A program made the position numbers and the translations under genes. From Escherichia phage EC121, in the sequence record NC_054909.1: a stretch of DNA of 64,000 nt; one strand, 5' to 3'. The notes beneath the pieces are model-generated. The model ran no database searches, was not told the origin of the DNA, and saw only the letters and a list, made by a program, of their open reading frames with translations. Of the stretch, positions 4,318-56,921 are shown piece by piece (positions within the stretch are counted from its first letter, which is position 1; the number at the start of each line of letters is the position of its first letter).

Positions 4318-4333
4318 AAGGCCCGAAGGCCTT
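4318..4333. terminator. GC stem-loop AAGGCC-CGAA-GGCCTT (UUCG loop on minus-strand RNA)
   Basis: Perfect 6-bp stem with tetraloop directly after the stop of the lipoprotein ORF; T-rich flank on plus side. Confidence 0.4.
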
Positions 4334-5784: not shown

Positions 5785-5823
5785 TACAATTTCCTCATTA
5801 ATTGAACATTGGAGCGATGCGTT

Positions 5824-5945
5824 TCAGAAGAGTAGCAGCACCTTTGGCAAATTTTCCATTTTATTCTCCAAGTTATTTTCTGTATCAGTAGTTGATATTG
5901 ATATAGTACCATAATCAACTACTGATGTATACAGTTTTATGAAAA
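5824..5945 (-). repeat. promoter-leader cassette copy A (palindromic variant) with 11-codon upstream ORF
   Basis: Shares about 60 nt with copies at 25.1 and 53.1 kb (GGTACTATA..ATCAACTACTGATACAG..TTGGAGAATAAAATG); here a 17-bp inverted repeat flanks the -10 region; leader ATG at 5859 opens MENLPKVLLLF-stop. Confidence 0.5.
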
Positions 5946-5956
5946 AATTTTAAACT

Positions 5957-6445
5957 TTATGCATAGAGAGCTTTGCTATAGTGTTTAATCCAGCTTTCAG
6001 GAATGACTTTGTATGTTCCTAAAAATACCACATTATACAGCTTAACACCGTCTTCTACCCACTGATCGGTAATGTATGCGCACATAGCACGAGTATAAAC
6101 AGCCAAACCATCATCTTTGATAAATTTAAATTCACAAGGAGCAATGAACTTAATAGCCTGACCGAGTTTCCACTTAAAGTCTACACCTACATGCGAAGTA
6201 TCAATCGTTTCAATTCCTTTAGCAGGAACAGCTTTCAAAAACGCAGATTCAAGAAATTTCGCACGAACATAGCCAAACTGAGGTTTAGACTTTCCATCTT
6301 TAGGAATGATACGCACTTTTACTTCAGAATCTTCATCTTTAACGCCGTGTTTAAGCTGAATGCTTACAATTTCGACCAATTTTCCTGCTGCTTTAGAACG
6401 GGATTTATCAGATACACGAGCAATTTCACCAATATTAATAATCAT
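5957..6445 (-). CDS. hypothetical protein, paralog A of a tandem pair (motB-region)
   Basis: 162 aa; C-terminal CAYITDQWVEDGVKLYNVV matches CGWVTDQWIEDGVELLNVV in the next ORF. Confidence 0.55.
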   Translation of the reverse strand: MIINIGEIARVSDKSRSKAAGKLVEIVSIQLKHGVKDEDSEVKVRIIPKDGKSKPQFGYVRAKFLESAFLKAVPAKGIETIDTSHVGVDFKWKLGQAIKFIAPCEFKFIKDDGLAVYTRAMCAYITDQWVEDGVKLYNVVFLGTYKVIPESWIKHYSKALYA

Positions 6446-14913: not shown

Positions 14914-14943
14914 ATTATACCATACTCATTGTGGAAAGTAAAC
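14914..14943 (-). promoter_or_regulatory. early promoter (GTTTAC, 17 nt, TATAAT)
   Basis: Minus strand GTTTACTTTCCACAATGAGTATGGTATAAT immediately after the soc terminator hairpin. Confidence 0.6.
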
Positions 14944-14952
14944 CGGTAAAAT

Positions 14953-14980
14953 GAAAAAAGGACTCCCGAAGGAGTCCCTG
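14953..14980 (-). terminator. intrinsic terminator after soc
   Basis: Minus-strand RNA GGGACUCC-UUCG-GGAGUCC followed by UUUUUU, starting 6 nt after the soc stop. Confidence 0.7.
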
Positions 14981-18709: not shown

Positions 18710-18767
18710 AACAATCTCCTCATTTAACCAACAAGACTACTATACCATAGTCTTGTCAGCTTGTAAA

Positions 18768-20195
18768 CTAAAATTTTAATTCATTTGCCAAAGCATCTAA
18801 CTGAGCTCGAGCGGATTCGTTTCTTTGATAGCGATTCTGTTCAGCTTGAATCTGCTGTGAACCTGCTACTTCGTTCACTTCAGTTGGAGTAGAATCTTGT
18901 TCAATTTCTACCCATTTCTGATTTCCTTTTTGAACACCCATCAAAAACTTATTCCATTTATTCTTATCACCGTATCGTGATTTGATTTGCTTAATGAGTT
19001 GTTGTTCAGCAGCTGCTAGCTCCTCGGTTTCAATGACCGCAAGCATAAAATCGGCTGTTGCTGGAAGACCGGCAGATTCCGCAATATCGCTCATGTTAAC
19101 ATCAGAAGAATCCCAAGCTTGCTTACCAACCTGTGCTGCAGTCCAAAGAACGGTTTCGGTTTCAACAGCCAGAGCACGCAATTCCTCTGCGATAGCTTTA
19201 ACAGTTGTGTAACTATTTTCTGAATAAACTCTGATGCGGCAAGATTTACAAATACCTAGATAGTCAACAATAATGATTGTTGGAACAAAATTCTTCTTGA
19301 GCTTTAATTCATTTAAAAGCGACCGAAATGTATTAGCGTCTGCTCCACCAGTAGGATACTGTTTAACGATTAAACGACCGAGAGTAGATTTCTCACGCCA
19401 TTTTTCCATCTTTCCTTTATACTCAGCGTAAGAAATATGCCCATCATCAATGTCATCAAGAGAAACATCAAGCATATTAGCGTCAATACGCTTAGCACAA
19501 ACTTCTTCTGCCATTTCCATGGAAATGTAAAGAACATTATGTCCGAGCTGCAAATAATCTGCTGCCAATGAACACAGACCTAATGACTTACCGACGTTAA
19601 CACCAGCCATTAAAACGTTCAGTGTTCCAGTTTCAGCTCCACCTTTAGTAATTTTGTTTAGAATTCTGAGTTTAAATGGAACTTTACGAGCTTTATTCAT
19701 ATAAGATAGCCAGCGTGCTTCGTAGTCATCCATCCAATCATGACCAACGTAGCTATCAAATGAAATTGATAATGCTTGGCGCATGATGTCAGGAATAGCA
19801 CCAACGTCCGGCATTTTCTTATTTCGTTTTTCCGGAGGAAGCTCAGCATTAGTTTGAATTTCGATTATTTTAGACGTAGCATTAAACATCGCCCTTTGCT
19901 GAACATATTTTTCTGTTTCTTTTATTAACCAACTGTGGTCTTCTGGAGAATCGGCTAGTTTCGAAATAAGTGTTTTTACACCAGAATATTCTGTTTCAGT
20001 AAATGAACTATTTTCTAATGCAACATTTAACGCATTAATAGATGGAACGCTATGGTACTCATTAACATGAGATTTAATTAATTTGAATGTATTTTTAGCT
20101 GGACCACTTTCAAAATATTCTGAATCCATATATGGCCAAACTTTTGAAAAATAAGCTTGATCAAATATGAGATGAGAAAGAATAATTTCTACCAC
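18768..20195 (-). CDS. 41: replicative DNA helicase gp41 (DnaB-like)
   Basis: 475 aa; Walker A AGVNVGKS; matches recalled T4 gp41. Confidence 0.97.
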   Translation of the reverse strand: MVEIILSHLIFDQAYFSKVWPYMDSEYFESGPAKNTFKLIKSHVNEYHSVPSINALNVALENSSFTETEYSGVKTLISKLADSPEDHSWLIKETEKYVQQRAMFNATSKIIEIQTNAELPPEKRNKKMPDVGAIPDIMRQALSISFDSYVGHDWMDDYEARWLSYMNKARKVPFKLRILNKITKGGAETGTLNVLMAGVNVGKSLGLCSLAADYLQLGHNVLYISMEMAEEVCAKRIDANMLDVSLDDIDDGHISYAEYKGKMEKWREKSTLGRLIVKQYPTGGADANTFRSLLNELKLKKNFVPTIIIVDYLGICKSCRIRVYSENSYTTVKAIAEELRALAVETETVLWTAAQVGKQAWDSSDVNMSDIAESAGLPATADFMLAVIETEELAAAEQQLIKQIKSRYGDKNKWNKFLMGVQKGNQKWVEIEQDSTPTEVNEVAGSQQIQAEQNRYQRNESARAQLDALANELKF

Positions 20196-24815: not shown

Positions 24816-25052
24816 TCAAATGCAAGTAGTAATTACTCCAGTAGTGCTTATGCAGGTATTACCCATTTGCACACCTAAAGATCCATTTGTATTCACATGA
24901 AGATTATCATCAATTTTAACTGATATTTTACCATTAGTGTGAATAACGGTGCTAGATTTAATCACAGGTTGAGTATCATTTTCAACACTAACAAATGGAA
25001 CTGCTACTAATGCAACTAAACAAACTGCTAAACATCCCATAACAATTTTCAT
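24816..25052 (-). CDS. small secreted/membrane protein
   Basis: 78 aa from ATG at 25052 (track start is TTG); hydrophobic N-terminus; driven by cassette copy B. Confidence 0.5.
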   Translation of the reverse strand: MKIVMGCLAVCLVALVAVPFVSVENDTQPVIKSSTVIHTNGKISVKIDDNLHVNTNGSLGVQMGNTCISTTGVITTCI

Positions 25053-25150
25053 TTTATTCTCCAAATCTGTATCAGTAGTTGATAGTTGTATAGTACCACA
25101 GAAGAACAGTCTTGTAAACAGTTTTGTGAAAATTTTTTAGGGAATTCTAA
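25053..25150 (-). repeat. promoter-leader cassette copy B
   Basis: CCCTAAAAAATTTTCACAAAACTGTTTAC, 17 nt, GGTACTATACAACTATCAACTACTGATACAGATTTGGAGAATAAAAATG; homologous to copies at 5.9 and 53.1 kb. Confidence 0.6.
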
Positions 25151-25202
25151 AGGTCCAGAATCATCTGTTTTTCATAAGTATAGATTTATATTACTTGTAT
25201 GA

Positions 25203-25228
25203 AAAAGGGACCCGGAGGTCCCTAGATT
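25203..25228 (-). terminator. intrinsic terminator after gene 43
   Basis: GGGACC-UCCG-GGUCCC followed by U-run on the minus-strand RNA. Confidence 0.6.
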
Positions 25229-25235
25229 TATTCTA

Positions 25236-40678: not shown

Positions 40679-40814
40679 AAATCATCTGTTTATGTAACTT
40701 GAGTATAAGATAATAAACTTCAAAACCGTTTACATAAGTAACACGAACAACATTACCATTAATAAAATAATATTGTCCCTTTTTTAATTTCTTTATCAAC
40801 CACAACCATATCAA
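40626..40814 (-). CDS. small hypothetical protein
   Basis: 62-aa ORF, first gene after the promoter at 40866-40897. Confidence 0.45.
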   Translation of the reverse strand: MIWLWLIKKLKKGQYYFINGNVVRVTYVNGFEVYYLILKLHKQMICDRAVFSSVAKEIKLHG

Positions 40815-40865
40815 ATCCTCAAAGGCAATTCATGTGTTAATAATACCACAGTTTGAACTTCTTGT

Positions 40866-40897
40866 AAACAACTTTGTGAAAATTATTTTAGGGAATG
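40866..40897 (-). promoter_or_regulatory. early promoter with conserved upstream element
   Basis: CCCTAAAATAATTTTCACAAAGTTGTTTAC, 17 nt, GTATTAT; the upstream element is shared with cassette copies B and C. Confidence 0.55.
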
Positions 40898-47739: not shown

Positions 47740-48692
47740 TTCAATACCTCAATAGCATTACGTAAACCATTTGCTTTTGCATTAAGAGCTTTTAACAATT
47801 TAGTGTGTTCGGCAATCTGAGCTTCAACTTCAACCAGTCGAGATTTGAGATATTCACGTTCTTCACTCATGTTATCAATCTTTTCTACTTTAGGCTCTTT
47901 TACAACTGTCTTATATGTATTAGGATTCTTCAGTTTAATTAGAATACGTGAACTGTATAACATTGAACCATTATCTTCGATTTCGTCATACATTTCTACT
48001 ACGTCCATAATTTTTAACATCATGCGAAGTTTATAAGACAACGAACGAATAGTTTTGTTGTGCTTATTAATTTCTCTAGCTGTCATGGTGCCGAGATTAC
48101 GTGAGTAATAATAAGGAACCTGGATATTAATTAATACTGATGAACCACCTGGCTTGTGTGTTACTTCATCAGCAATAACCCAGTCCTTAACATGAACTGT
48201 ATTTGTACGGTCATCGCCTGCGGTAAATAGTTTGCGAGCATGCTTAAAAAGCATATTCACTTGGGTATTGAATTGACAAGCAAATTTATCAGCAAATTTA
48301 GTTTCAGGAATGGTAGATAACCAATCAGCTAAATGGGTCTTTTTAACATCGTTAACAATAGTAAATTCAACCAAATCGATTATAGATGTCGCAGATTTAA
48401 TGAAGCTTGGCTTCATAAAGTTTTTAATGTTATCGCGAGCTACAGTAGAAGATAACATACGAGAACGTTTAAACCATTCAAGCAAATTGCCTAACGAATG
48501 AGAATAAGCGTTTTGAGTATCTTTACAGATATGATTTTCCTGGCCAACATATTGAAGGAAATCACGAAGAATATTATTAATTACTGATCTGTGTCCGATC
48601 TGATAATTGCGGTGTTTAGTAATAAGACTGTCAAAATAATCAATATAATGTTTACGAGTCATATTAATCTCCTCAGTAGAAAGTAAGAACAT
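47736..48692 (-). CDS. hypothetical protein with C-terminal coiled coil
   Basis: 318-aa ORF; the promoter at 48692-48721 suggests the true start is the internal ATG (MTRKHY...). Confidence 0.55.
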   Translation of the reverse strand: MFLLSTEEINMTRKHYIDYFDSLITKHRNYQIGHRSVINNILRDFLQYVGQENHICKDTQNAYSHSLGNLLEWFKRSRMLSSTVARDNIKNFMKPSFIKSATSIIDLVEFTIVNDVKKTHLADWLSTIPETKFADKFACQFNTQVNMLFKHARKLFTAGDDRTNTVHVKDWVIADEVTHKPGGSSVLINIQVPYYYSRNLGTMTAREINKHNKTIRSLSYKLRMMLKIMDVVEMYDEIEDNGSMLYSSRILIKLKNPNTYKTVVKEPKVEKIDNMSEEREYLKSRLVEVEAQIAEHTKLLKALNAKANGLRNAIEVLK

Positions 48693-48721
48693 TATACCAC
48701 ATCCTTGTGGCGAAGTAAACT
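48692..48721 (-). promoter_or_regulatory. early promoter (GTTTAC, 17 nt, TATAAT)
   Basis: GTTTACTTCGCCACAAGGATGTGGTATAAT; spacer nearly identical to the rIIA.1 promoter at 2418-2447. Confidence 0.55.
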
Positions 48722-49739
48722 AGTTTAGTGCATTTAGTGCATTGTTCAGTTTAGAACGTTGCTTCGTGAGATTTTTGACTTTTTCTTGAGCTTTTTCTAG
48801 CATCTTTTCAGCTTCTAACACTTCATTAGTTGCTTTAACGAGTTCATCATCTACTGCCTTAAGGGACTTCTCAATCGCATCCGCGTGCCATTTTTCAACA
48901 GGTTTAAGACTCGGATTTTCAACAGGAAGAAAATTCGCTTTATTGAATTTCCATGCATCCTTATTACCTGAACTATACATCCAAAATTTAGGATCGTTTG
49001 ATGAGTAATTGGATAAATTTAAGATATCTTGCACTTCCTGCTTTTTCTCTTGCGGGATTTCGTCCTTTCTCAAAAAATCGTATTTAAATGAAACGATCAT
49101 ATCAAGTTCATATATTGTTGTGTCTAATTTAAATCGCTCAAAACGAGGTAAAATCTTAGACTGAACAGCGGCAACAACATCCATATACTTAAATGCTTCT
49201 GCCAACTGCGATTTAAGGCATTCGCAAATTGAAAGAGAATTTTTTGTATTAGGTTTAAAGCTAATTCGTGCAGTTCTGTTATTTTCTTTTAATGGTCTTA
49301 CTTCCATCTGAAGAGTATAACCATCAAATTTCAGGTTCTTTAAGTTAATGTCAGAACCTTTTAATCGACTAGCCGTCGACAAAATTTGCTTTAATTGTTT
49401 ACGGAATAGAGCAATAAATCTCCATTCAATACGATAATGATTTGGATTAAAAAATCCAGATGATAAATCGACCTTACTCTGACCAACGCCTTGAACAAAT
49501 AGAGGATTTTTATAATCAATAGTTTTACAGAAATCGGTGAGCTGCTCACGAGCCGTCATTTGTGTAATATACCCCGCTTTACTAAAATGACGTAACCATT
49601 CACTGCTATTCATATATTTAAAGTGAATATCACGATTAACTTTATCAGGGTCTAAATTATTTTGGCACAAAAATGTCATAACATCACGAGTATAGCTGGC
49701 ATTACGAACCATATCTTCAATTTGAGAACGAGTTTTCAT
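48720..49739 (-). CDS. hypothetical protein with C-terminal coiled coil
   Basis: 339-aa ORF. Confidence 0.55.
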   Translation of the reverse strand: MKTRSQIEDMVRNASYTRDVMTFLCQNNLDPDKVNRDIHFKYMNSSEWLRHFSKAGYITQMTAREQLTDFCKTIDYKNPLFVQGVGQSKVDLSSGFFNPNHYRIEWRFIALFRKQLKQILSTASRLKGSDINLKNLKFDGYTLQMEVRPLKENNRTARISFKPNTKNSLSICECLKSQLAEAFKYMDVVAAVQSKILPRFERFKLDTTIYELDMIVSFKYDFLRKDEIPQEKKQEVQDILNLSNYSSNDPKFWMYSSGNKDAWKFNKANFLPVENPSLKPVEKWHADAIEKSLKAVDDELVKATNEVLEAEKMLEKAQEKVKNLTKQRSKLNNALNALN

Positions 49740-51633: not shown

Positions 51634-51693
51634 TTTGTGTTCCTCCGTAGTTGATAGGGTAATAATACCACAGAGGAACAGTCTTGTAAACCA

Positions 51694-52008
51694 CTAAAAG
51701 AAACTTCTTTCACAATTTTTTCCACTGAACCATGCGCTCACTGCTTTCTTAGTCTCAGGAGCAGTGTTATCCATAAACCATTCAAAGGCAGCCTTTTTAT
51801 GATTCTGGAGGGCTTCTCGGGCTTTAATCTGCTCACGGTCTATTAACACTAACATATGAGCCTTTCTTGTCACCATGGGCTTCTTATGATTTTTTGAATA
51901 CTCCCAATCATTTGTCCATCGCATTGTTGTTGCGAACTGAAATACTGCTTCTTTAATTTTAGTTTCGTAAATTTCACGAGCCTTTGAGTATAACATCACT
52001 ACCTCCAT
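51694..52008 (-). CDS. hypothetical protein
   Basis: 104-aa ORF. Confidence 0.45.
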   Translation of the reverse strand: MEVVMLYSKAREIYETKIKEAVFQFATTMRWTNDWEYSKNHKKPMVTRKAHMLVLIDREQIKAREALQNHKKAAFEWFMDNTAPETKKAVSAWFSGKNCERSFF

Positions 52009-52097: not shown

Positions 52098-52841
52098 TTA
52101 TTTCAGAAGAGTAACCTCAGCGATTTCTTCCCAACCGTTTTTGTCGGTCATAATAAAGTCAGCAAGATAAAGAGCAGTACGCAGTGAAACATTGCGTAAA
52201 CGATTAACATTGACTTTCATCCATGATAATGCTTTATAAGTTTCTTCATCAGAAAGACCGCGCTTTTGCATCATGTCAGTTGAAAGAATAACATCTTCAA
52301 CCCTGACCATAATTTCTTCATTAGTGTGAACACCCAAATCCAAATAAACTGAGCGGGACACTAATGCTTGTAAATGTGGAGCAAGTTTAGTACCACGGTC
52401 TAATTCGCGGTCAATATCAACGTTTGTGATAAAAACAATAGTTCCTTTAAATTCAAACTCGCGCTCAATGCCTTTTTCTTCTAAGTAAGAAGATGCAGTG
52501 CTCCAGCAGACTTTACGGGTCTCTCCAGTGTCCAGAGCAGCTTTTAGAAGATTAAGAATGTCCATATCAGAGAAAACATCCACATCATCAATCAAAAGGA
52601 CAGAATTCTCTTCACGATTATTCCAAAGCTGTTCATAAAGACCAATACCAGAGATTTTACCATTAATGCTTTTATACTCAATGTATCCAATATCATTTGC
52701 TTTATTTAAAGCTTTATCTAAAGAATACGTTTTACCAATACCTGCTGCTCCCGAGATAATTAATGAACGAATGTTTCCGTTAATAATACCATTCGTCATC
52801 ATTCCCATAACATTAAATCTTTTATTAATGCGGGTTTTCAT
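52098..52841 (-). CDS. P-loop NTPase (AAA-like ATPase), 5-prime end unresolved
   Basis: 247 aa; Walker A SGAAGIGKT and Walker B VLLIDDVD; the frame stays open for about 68 codons upstream with no start codon. Confidence 0.6.
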   Translation of the reverse strand: MKTRINKRFNVMGMMTNGIINGNIRSLIISGAAGIGKTYSLDKALNKANDIGYIEYKSINGKISGIGLYEQLWNNREENSVLLIDDVDVFSDMDILNLLKAALDTGETRKVCWSTASSYLEEKGIEREFEFKGTIVFITNVDIDRELDRGTKLAPHLQALVSRSVYLDLGVHTNEEIMVRVEDVILSTDMMQKRGLSDEETYKALSWMKVNVNRLRNVSLRTALYLADFIMTDKNGWEEIAEVTLLK

Positions 52842-52996
52842 ATCTTCATACGATTCTTTAACTTCTTCAACTTTTACACCATCATATGAAATGTCTGATT
52901 TGTAAACCCAAACACCGCGACGCTTACCGTCAATTTCAACAAAAACTTTACCATCTCCTTGTGCATCTACCGGAGCATTATCTGGGAACCATTCGC

Positions 52997-53068
52997 CTAA
53001 GAGTTCAAAAGTTCCAGAGATTTCTTTACCGAAGTAGATACCCTCTTATTGATAGTTACAGTTTTCAT
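52997..53068 (-). other. 23-codon leader ORF behind cassette copy C
   Basis: ATG with GGAGAA RBS encodes MKTVTINKRVSTSVKKSLELLNS; it overlaps, in another frame, the open upstream extension of the ATPase ORF. Confidence 0.35.
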
Positions 53069-53150
53069 TTTATTCTCCAAATCTATATCAGTTGATAGTT
53101 GTATAGTACCATAAAGCTTTATGCTTGTAAACAGTTTTGTGAAAAATTTT
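53069..53150 (-). repeat. promoter-leader cassette copy C
   Basis: TTTTTCACAAAACTGTTTAC, 17 nt, GGTACTATACAACTATCAACTGATATAGATTTGGAGAATAAAATG. Confidence 0.6.
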
Positions 53151-53162
53151 TGAAATAAAAAA

Positions 53163-53180
53163 GGGAGCCCGAAGGCTCCC
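53163..53180 (-). terminator. intrinsic terminator after the NTase-fold gene
   Basis: GGGAGCC-UUCG-GGCUCCC followed by UUUUUU on the minus-strand RNA. Confidence 0.6.
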
Positions 53181-53182
53181 TA

Positions 53183-55914: not shown

Positions 55915-56078
55915 TACATACTCCTTTGAATAATATCAATAATGTTGTTCACCAAATTATACGTAAACATTGGGTAATTATATTGAATCATCACATACAC
56001 AACAAACAAAACTTTCATTCTCTTCTCCTTGGCAGTTGACAAGATTACTATACCATAACCTTGCCAACTTGTAAACCA

Positions 56079-56851: not shown

Positions 56852-56888
56852 TAGTTGTATAGTATCACAGCTCAAACGGAAAGTAAAC
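56852..56888 (-). promoter_or_regulatory. early promoter (GTTTAC, 17 nt, TACTAT) with cassette-type leader
   Basis: GTTTACTTTCCGTTTGAGCTGTGATACTATACAACTATC... immediately after a terminator hairpin. Confidence 0.55.
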
Positions 56889-56903
56889 CGGTAAAATGAA
56901 AAA

Positions 56904-56921
56904 AGTCTCCCGAAGGAGACT
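56904..56921 (-). terminator. intrinsic terminator
   Basis: GUCUCC-UUCG-GGAGAC followed by UUUUUU on the minus-strand RNA. Confidence 0.6.

Follow-up and report, generated by a model that had tools for sequence, protein, structure and literature searches.

What kind of element is the stretch of about 100 nt that follows gene 43 in Escherichia phage EC121, and how did it come to resemble stretches elsewhere in the same genome? We addressed this question in a 64,000-nt segment of the EC121 sequence (record NC_054909.1; hereafter, the window), for which a first-pass annotation had described a hairpin-promoter-leader cassette recurring at 5.9, 25.1, and 53.1 kb, with partial copies at 14.9, 40.9, and 56.9 kb, and had attributed its presence at unrelated genes to recombinational spread. 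A 3-kb query around the 25.1-kb site has matches in 570 phage records; the best of these, which belong to Escherichia phage AR1 and its relatives from the genus Tequatrovirus, are ~98.5% identical and span gene 43 (DNA polymerase), imm.1, imm, and gene 42. To judge from these matches, the window is a Tequatrovirus (T4-like) genome. The annotations of AR1 and T4 identify it as the rIIA-to-e early region, in which almost all genes are encoded on the minus strand; therefore, the cassette is also read on the minus strand, and all features described below are located on that strand.

A repeat search of the window without a preset motif recovered the family on the minus strand (as repeats D1, D2, and D7). 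It comprises three full copies, with -35 elements at 5932 between motB and cef (cassette A), at 25119 between gene 43 and a small open reading frame (ORF) preceding imm.1 (cassette B), and at 53132 between nrdC.11 and nrdC.10 (cassette C). When the 99-nt cassette of the 25.1-kb copy was used as a blastn query against the window, with 60 dinucleotide shuffles as the null, cassette C was matched at 53151-53063 (85% identity over 92 nt, 91 bits) and cassette A at 5952-5854 (77% over 100 nt, 71 bits), and two partial relatives, at 51710-51644 (52 bits) and 40896-40840 (51 bits), were also significant. The match at 18281-18198 is marginal, since its 34.0 bits barely exceed the shuffle maximum of 32.6, and the match at 56870-56825 scores 32.6 bits, which equals the best shuffle score. 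Thus, the three full copies of the first-pass annotation and its partial copy at 40.9 kb were recovered, whereas the sites at 14.9 and 56.9 kb do not belong with the trio: they form a separate subfamily that has little in common with it beyond the promoter class and, like the 18.2-kb site, are marginal or promoter-class-only relatives. The relatives at 51.7 and 18.2 kb are absent from the earlier list of copies. The sequence strings quoted there for the cassette are exact at 25.1 kb but do not extend to the other copies, each string having a single match even with three mismatches allowed. Beyond the window, the 99-nt cassette matches ~9-11 places per Tequatrovirus genome, and T4-like contigs of IMG/VR contain as many as six occurrences per genome of a 21-mer taken from the cassette core; at least eight loci were defined in this way and labelled A-H. 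The exact-pattern scan of IMG/VR returned approximately six T4-like genomes, which shows the wider family and is too small a sample for population statistics.

The similarity of the full copies exceeds that expected for members of one promoter class. A scan of the window for GTTTAC-N17-19-TAnnnT found 19 sites with an exact GTTTAC on the minus (early-gene) strand vs. two on the plus strand, and 20 early-promoter-like sites with a nearby Shine-Dalgarno (SD) sequence and ATG were compared pairwise. The three pairs of full copies are the top three in 5'UTR similarity, with identities of 0.70-0.89 against a background of 0.50 +/- 0.08 (maximum 0.68). Over the 30 nt that precede the -35 element, they reach 0.60-0.70 and are among the top pairs, against a background of 0.35 +/- 0.10. 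Self-alignment of the window thus confirms that the family is real and that its likeness extends past the -35 and -10 hexamers, and the proposed conservation of the UTR, ribosome-binding site, and start codon is borne out by leader identities above the background. The description of the spacer requires correction in two respects. GTTTAC and GGTACTATA are separated by 16 nt rather than the reported 17 (in sigma-70 terms, TTTACA-17-TACTAT); in addition, the spacer is not simply variable, as the spacers of the three full copies are unlike one another, yet that of cassette B is identical in 17 of 18 positions to the spacer of the nrdC.8 promoter at 51.7 kb.

Cassette B, from which the query was taken, illustrates the order of parts. 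Gene 43 is followed by a predicted intrinsic-terminator hairpin, AGGGACC-UCCG-GGUCCCU (25206..25223), with a U-run at 25201-25205; the 41-nt segment 25195-25235 folds with a minimum free energy (MFE) of -13.9 kcal/mol (z -2.86), and this hairpin is not homologous to the hairpins at other copies. An AT-rich UP-type element, CCCTAAAAAATTTTCACAAAACT (25120..25142), resembles the UP elements of T4 early promoters (PMC2988021) and has its nearest paralogs in the 40.9-kb promoter and in locus F of other genomes. The core early promoter (25090..25119) consists of the -35 element GTTTAC(A) at 25113-25119, the spacer, and an extended -10 element, TGG plus TACTAT, at 25090-25098, and transcription is predicted from the sequence to start near 25083. 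The 37-nt stretch between the -10 element and the ATG, ACAACUAUCAACUACUGAUACAGAUUUGGAGAAUAAA (25053..25089), holds the 5' leader and is predicted to be unstructured (MFE -1.9 kcal/mol, z +0.73). It overlaps an SD sequence embedded in the RegB/S1 consensus, GGAGAATAAAA (25052..25062; 11 of 11 positions match GGAGRAYARAA), and the ATG is at 25050-25052. The first gene behind the cassette is a 78-codon ORF (24816..25052) with a signal-peptide-like N-terminus, a homologue of AR1 ar1_049 (phrog_4189) that was found by tblastn in 324 of 50,697 phage records. T4, PST, and T6 do not have this ORF, and cassette B leads there directly into imm.1. The indel is flanked by the direct repeat ATGAAAAT, made by the two start codons, and the stop codon of the ORF lies 10 nt from the imm.1 ATG. 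The GenBank record of Yersinia phage fPS-65 lists, at the orthologous site, a terminator, a 'predicted early promoter', the small ORF, and imm.1; in one RefSeq record, one of the cassette sites is mislabelled as attL.

Cassette A (5854..5956) lies between motB and cef, with the motB stop codon abutting the UP element and no hairpin. Its -35 element is GTATAC (5927-5932), its -10 element is TACTAT (5903-5908), 43 nt separate the -10 element from the ATG (5857-5859), and the RegB/SD site, recognized by motif match, is at 5859-5869. The ORF behind it, MENLPKVLLLF (5824..5859), which had been taken for an 11-codon upstream ORF, is what remains, out of frame, of a 90-codon gene (phrog_3720) that is intact in AR1 as ar1_010, was found in ~261 records of the same collection, and was lost here via a deletion between AAAATT repeats that is common to T4. 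Cassette C (53063..53181), located between nrdC.11 and nrdC.10, contains a hairpin (53162-53181) with a U-run, an UP element, a -35 element at 53127-53132, a -10 element at 53103-53108, a -10-to-ATG distance of 34 nt, a RegB/SD site at 53068-53078 (again a motif match), and an ATG at 53066-53068. The hairpin is of the C(UUCG)G type and adjoins the UP element, 29 nt from the -35 element; the 36-nt segment 53155-53190 folds with an MFE of -16.5 kcal/mol (z -3.87). The supposed 23-codon leader before an ATPase gene (52997..53068) proved to be the N-terminus of nrdC.10 itself, put out of frame where two extra base pairs, AG, follow codon 8 (approximately 53043-53044); the remainder of the frameshifted gene extends to 52098, and no other record in the phage collection has the same insertion. 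The downstream genes do differ among the copies, as had been stated, and the signal-peptide-like ORF at 25.1 kb stands; however, the other two had been misread, one being a deletion remnant and the other a frameshifted nrdC.10.

All three copies share the promoter layout and the 3' end. TTTACA-17-TACTAT, with TG before the -10 element, occurs at 25118-25090, TTTACA-17-TACTAT is also present at 53.1 kb, and the -35 element at 5.9 kb, TATACA, has one mismatch to TTTACW. UP, -35, TGn, and -10 elements are combined in one promoter, as in the T4 early promoter (Pe) layout; aaaaaattttcacaaaact and its variants, which belong to the PeSL motif set, are present in all three full copies, and the SD sequence with the start codon, GGAGAATAAAATG, forms the 3' end of each. 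T4 early promoters have been called 'uber' promoters of the UP/-35/TGn/-10 type, in which further regions follow a consensus; they outdo host promoters right after infection and are stimulated further by Alt (Hinton, 2010, Virol J 7:289; PMC2988021). Mapped T4 middle promoters were checked against the three full-copy sites and none is located there; a middle-promoter reading of these sites was accordingly rejected. The GenBank record of T4, inspected for curated promoter features, contains only CDS and a few miscellaneous features, and no relevant work turned up in the literature on RNA-seq mapping of T4 start sites.

The most constant part of the cassette coincides with a processing signal. 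In T4 early mRNAs, according to Durand et al. (2006, NAR 34:6549; PMC1702504), the 11-nt sequence GGAGRAYARAA is needed for efficient RegB/S1 cleavage and must be single-stranded, and the T4 optimum of a strong site is GGAGAAUAAAA (RegB site also in PMC3014915). The window contains exactly three occurrences of GGAGRAYARAA (25052-25062, 5859-5869, and 53068-53078), which are those of the three full copies, against 0.53 expected; because the three are paralogs and not independent events, this enrichment statistic overstates the support. Since the segment from the ribosome-binding site to the ATG is itself the RegB/S1 consensus, its conservation has a functional explanation without recombination. 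As in the strong T4 sites described there, all 11 positions of GGAGAAUAAAA are found over the SD sequence in an early leader predicted to be single-stranded. The folding z-scores of the three leaders are +0.73, +0.76, and -0.27. GGAG is unpaired in the predicted folds at 25.1 and 53.1 kb; the minimum-energy fold at 5.9 kb pairs part of it, weakly (MFE -4.1 kcal/mol, z -0.27). No Rfam family reached gathering thresholds in the window, and the matches around the 25.1-kb site are at chance level.

The weaker relatives share different subsets of these parts. The early promoter of nrdC.8 (51644..51710; -35 at 51686-51691) has CTATCAACTAC in its leader in common with cassette B, and the UP element of the gene 55.6 early promoter (40840..40896; -35 at 40864-40869) shares 84% identity with its counterpart in cassette B. 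Besides the one in nrdC.10, an apparent frameshift was noted at 40780-40785. The separate subfamily consists of the mrh.2 promoter (14938..14979), with a UUCG terminator hairpin at 14958-14979, an UP element, and a -35 element, and of the mobD.5 promoter (56883..56921), which has the same three parts with the hairpin at 56904-56921. These two sites share 28 identical nucleotides across the hairpin, UP, and -35 elements (repeat family D13), and the -10 element and early leader (TACTATacaactatc) of the 56.9-kb site match those of the full-copy trio. The first ORFs after the early promoters, mapped to T4 and AR1, are regB, mobD.5, mobD.2, nrdC.10, nrdC.8, nrdC.3, 55.6, dmd, sp, mrh.2, modB, srd, motB.2, motB, and rIIA.1; by this mapping, the first genes behind these promoters are classical T4 early genes.

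Hairpins with UUCG loops occur at several places in the region and are not a regular part of the cassette. Tuerk and colleagues reportedly described C(UUCG)G tetraloop hairpins in T4 intercistronic regions in PNAS in 1988. The minus strand of the window has 10 UUCG-loop hairpins with at least five stem pairs next to the loop, and 13 candidates are found at four or more pairs with UCCG loops included. A C(UUCG)G tetraloop followed by a U-run is present at 53162-53181, 14958-14979, and 56904-56921, as in the T4 hairpins, whereas the hairpin at 25206-25223 differs from these in its UCCG loop. The view that a UUCG hairpin belongs to the cassette therefore does not hold: there is none at 5.9 kb, the UCCG hairpin at 25.1 kb lies 86 nt upstream of the -35 element, and among the full copies a UUCG hairpin abuts the UP element only at 53.1 kb.

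Comparison across genomes separates the history of the copies from that of the neighboring ORFs. The three cassettes are also present in T4, AR1, PST, T6, and UFV06, where they occupy the same junctions, motB|cef, 43|imm.1, and nrdC.11|nrdC.10. Orthologous copies are nearly identical and paralogous copies are 65-85% identical; by this comparison, the three full copies are therefore old and were inherited vertically at the same junctions as in T4, rather than inserted recently. Both small ORFs, at A (~261 records) and at B (324 records), occur once per genome wherever they are present, with no change of locus detected by tblastn in 50,697 records, and each has the same map position in all listed records whose coordinates start at rIIA. 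The indel junctions beside cassettes A and B are microhomologies of 6-8 bp (ATGAAAAT and AAAATT) at the 3' edge of the cassette, and no second cassette was found on the far side of either ORF.

The sequence of the cassettes themselves is mosaic. Which paralog is closest to cassette B depends on the segment: locus F and the gene 55.6 promoter (P55.6) for the UP element (0.85 and 0.84, respectively), loci D and H for the spacer (0.94), loci E and F for the first 22 leader nucleotides (1.00, i.e., 22 of 22 positions identical among B, E, and F), and locus C for the SD-proximal 20 nt (0.95). Cassette B of PST combines the spacer of locus F (18/18) with the leader of locus G (22/22). Furthermore, a leader dimorphism, long caactACTgatacAg vs. 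short caactgatacGg (a 3-nt indel and an A/G difference linked to it), occurs at both B and C in different genomes: the window and AR1 have the long form at B and the short form at C, PST has the short form at B and the long form at C, and the PST leader at locus C is identical to the AR1 leader at locus B. At least 45 of 513 records have the long leader at locus C, among them RB3, RB5-7, RB9-10, HY01, and UFV-AREG1. Locus B also shows a different 3-nt deletion (caactaatacgg), thus leader indels recur and parallel mutation could account for some of the shared dimorphism. Taken together, mosaicism and the shared dimorphism lend some support to patchwise recombination between cassettes, with which they would be consistent. 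Of the recombinational spread proposed earlier, exchange of cassette segments thus retains some support, whereas movement of cassettes together with ORFs does not, given the fixed loci of the ORFs and the position of the three cassettes at the same junctions in T4; the comparison of flanking genes across T4-like genomes, suggested as evidence for module shuffling, revealed no mobility.

These observations bear on three alternative explanations of the repeated cassette. Independent selection may have brought every copy to the same optimum, comprising the strongest early promoter, an unstructured leader, and an optimal RegB/S1 site, with no recombination between copies. Such pure functional convergence accords with the extension of the T4 early promoter consensus past the hexamers (PMC2988021), with the identity of the SD-proximal 11 nt to the RegB consensus, with the recurrent 3-nt leader deletions, with the stability of the ORFs adjoining the cassettes, and with the much greater similarity of orthologs than of paralogs at sites that are fixed in T4, AR1, PST, T6, and UFV06. 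It accounts poorly for identity at positions without a known consensus, namely the spacer of B and nrdC.8 (17/18), the spacer of PST cassette B and locus F (18/18), and the leader of B, E, and F (22/22), for the change of the nearest paralog by segment, and for the same linked indel and SNP at two loci; moreover, short patches of homology suffice for T4 recombination (Singer et al., 1982, as cited in PMC2839356). We consider convergence as the sole cause improbable.

An actively mobile module, in which cassettes and ORFs are excised as mini-circles between two cassettes and re-inserted at others, so that the copies in the window are recent, appears still less probable. Mini-circles and PeSL-bordered indels have been demonstrated in RB49/phi1 and inferred for PST/T4 (PMC2839356, PMC4122927), and the small ORFs directly beside cassettes A and B are indeed polymorphic for presence and absence. 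Yet the ORF at B is single-copy in 324 of 324 records and that at A in ~261, at one map position in the listed records that start at rIIA; neither is bounded by a second cassette (10 nt separate the stop codon of the ORF at B from the imm.1 ATG), the junctions are 6-8 bp microhomologies rather than cassette-cassette joints, and T4 shares the sites of all three cassettes. A 'hopping module' was accordingly rejected, as both small ORFs are single-copy and at a fixed locus wherever coordinates are comparable (tblastn, 50,697 records). The 11- and 23-codon ORFs behind two of the three copies could also recall leader peptides of a structured cis-regulatory leader, of an attenuator or riboswitch-like type. 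With leaders predicted to be unstructured (z-scores of +0.73, +0.76, and -0.27), no Rfam match, an 11-codon ORF that is a deletion remnant, and a 23-codon ORF that is a frameshifted gene start private to this genome, this structured-RNA reading is effectively refuted and has hardly any probability left.

Very probably, then, the copies are cassettes for immediate-early expression in a T4-type phage and PeSLs as Comeau et al. (2014) use the term, and the likeness among copies stems from functional constraint together with patchwise exchange. We infer promoter, terminator, and RegB activities at these sites from the T4 literature and from motif matches. Where an intrinsic terminator hairpin is present, it would end the upstream transcript and insulate the cassette. 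Host sigma-70 RNA polymerase would start strongly at the UP/-35/TGn/-10 promoter on DNA entry, and the A/U/C-rich unstructured leader with its GGAG SD sequence would allow efficient translation of the first gene. As an optimal target of the RegB endoribonuclease with ribosomal protein S1, GGAGAAUAAAA would lead to inactivation of the message within minutes. The net effect of insulation, strong transcription, efficient translation, and fast RegB inactivation would be a short burst of expression. Under this explanation, the likeness among copies would have two sources, a functional constraint that acts on promoter consensus and RegB site alike in all copies, and patchwise homologous exchange (gene conversion) among the approximately eight paralogous cassettes of a genome, and the 3' edge of the cassette would be a hot spot of small indels by which short ORFs are gained or lost.

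The classification as a PeSL-like promoter cassette of T4-type phages, put forward in the first-pass annotation, agrees with the published T4/PST layout and with the terminator and 'predicted early promoter' annotated at the same site of fPS-65. Comeau, Arbiol and Krisch (2014, Genome Biol Evol 6:1611; PMC4122927) describe the T4/PST PeSL as a stem-loop just upstream of an AT-rich region, TTTACW-N17-TAYWAT, an SD sequence, and a start codon, with the motifs close to indels in hyperplastic regions. The cassettes in the window resemble the elements in that description in genus, in the order of parts, and in their position in hyperplastic early regions beside small variable ORFs and indels, such as the 78-codon ORF present or absent at B and the 90-codon gene deleted at A. 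They differ from it in that a stem-loop lies just upstream only at 53.1 kb, being 86 nt off at 25.1 kb and absent at 5.9 kb, and in that the indels are microhomology events at start codons rather than exchanges between two PeSLs. As defined for RB49/phi1, a PeSL is a repeated cassette in which an AT-rich region and an early promoter of the sigma-70 type are combined with a stem-loop and with the SD sequence and start codon that serve the following gene; promoter activity, terminator activity, and mini-circle formation were shown experimentally (Arbiol et al., 2010, Genome Biol Evol 2:140; PMC2839356). The PeSLs of these phages are likewise many-copy cassettes of promoter, stem-loop, and SD/ATG that are tied to ORFan indels, and gene 43 is bordered by PeSLs there as well; however, their promoters are near-perfect TTGACA/TATAAT, their stems are G/C tracts often located inside the promoter, and their activities and mini-circles are experimental, whereas promoter and terminator activity here is predicted from sequence. 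According to the authors, the T-even elements are analogues rather than homologues of the RB49/phi1 PeSLs (PMC2839356). T4 early promoters in general (Hinton, 2010; PMC2988021) share the UP element, the -35 GTTTAC(A), TGn, the -10 element, and extra consensus positions, and T4 has the same three promoters, but membership in this class alone does not explain the 70-89% leader identity of the three copies.

For this genus, the literature already covers the cassette class, the parts of which it consists, and the role in modular shuffling proposed for it. T4 early promoters, UUCG hairpins, and RegB sites are textbook T4 biology. A small addition of this analysis is that the perfect matches to the RegB consensus in the window coincide exactly with the three tightest copies. 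It is conceivable, if rather doubtful, that the approximately eight paralogous Tequatrovirus cassettes constitute a small co-regulated set whose members have in common an optimal RegB site and the leader ACAACUAUCAACU(ACU)GAUAC and are kept alike by ongoing gene conversion, and that the conserved 5' half of this leader, explained neither by the promoter consensus nor by the RegB site, could bind a factor; if so, the same leader dimorphism would segregate at several loci at once. For annotation, the cassette marks immediate-early transcription units and explains why repeat finders flag these sites, and the short ORFs behind cassettes should not be taken as regulatory upstream ORFs. Leader and spacer segments appear to reassort among paralogous cassettes, which would give modest comparative support to the published recombination model.

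Small ORFs adjoin two of the three full copies of the early-promoter cassette, which combines a promoter, a leader, and a Shine-Dalgarno sequence with its start codon. Next to cassette B, the copy between gene 43 and imm.1, a 78-codon ORF of phrog_4189 (24816-25052, minus strand) has a signal-peptide-like N-terminus and is flanked by gene 43 and, on its other side, by the superinfection-immunity genes imm.1 and imm; 324 Tequatrovirus records have such an ORF, while T4, PST, and T6 are without it. The 11-codon ORF at cassette A, the copy between motB and cef (5824-5859, minus strand), is a remnant, left by deletion, of the 90-codon gene phrog_3720, which occupies positions 5818-6087 in the close relative AR1. 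This gene is intact in approximately 261 Tequatrovirus records and has homologs with about 41% identity in Klebsiella T4-like phages; its deletion is common to the window and T4.

Two further observations concern cassette B. In the interval from the terminator of gene 43 to the AT-rich UP element of the cassette, the octamer TATAAATC (25183-25190, minus strand) matches the T4 late-promoter box consensus, TATAAATA, at 7 of 8 positions and is conserved in AR1 and T4. In the T6 RefSeq record NC_054907.1, part of the orthologous cassette (649-688) is annotated as attL. This label is evidently an artifact of a prophage-style repeat finder, which caught the cassette repeats even though the phage is virulent.

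Two genes preceded by early-promoter cassettes carry private frameshifts, both of which fall inside the first ~10 codons downstream of the cassette. The AAA-type ATPase gene nrdC.10 (52098-53068, minus strand) is put out of frame by two inserted base pairs, AG, that follow codon 8 (53043-53044), as compared with T4, AR1, and PST. The insertion was found in no other record of the phage collection, the best matches spanning 149 nt vs. 151 nt in the window; it could be a recent mutation that inactivated the gene, or else an error in sequencing. The second case is gene 55.6 (ATG at 40807-40809, minus strand), where the A-run at approximately 40780-40785 is A6 instead of the A5 of T4, AR1, and PST; the one extra A shifts the frame, and a 16-codon ORF remains.

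The window was scanned for hairpins with UUCG or UCCG loops and at least four stem pairs adjoining the loop, which revealed 13 on the minus strand (e.g., at 4333, 20502, 28008, 29955, 36361, 37631, and 40001) and only four, all weak, on the plus strand. A UUCG loop is combined with at least five pairs in ten of the 13 minus-strand hairpins; the UUCG hairpin is the classical T4 intercistronic tetraloop hairpin. The early promoters of mrh.2 and mobD.5 share a perfect 28-nt repeat, GGAAAGTAAACCGGTAAAATGAAAAAAG on the plus strand (14933-14960 and 56878-56905), that covers the U-run of the UUCG terminator, the UP element, and the -35 box. These sites constitute a second cassette subfamily, and here the repeat truly includes the hairpin. 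The rIIA.1 and nrdC.3 early promoters (2418-2449 and 48691-48722; 94% over 32 nt) and those of dmd and mobD.2 (18731-18768 and 56039-56076; 87% over 38 nt) are near-identical in the spacer, -10, and -35. Across the genome, early promoters have their cores in common pair by pair, and this extends to the supposedly 'variable' spacer.
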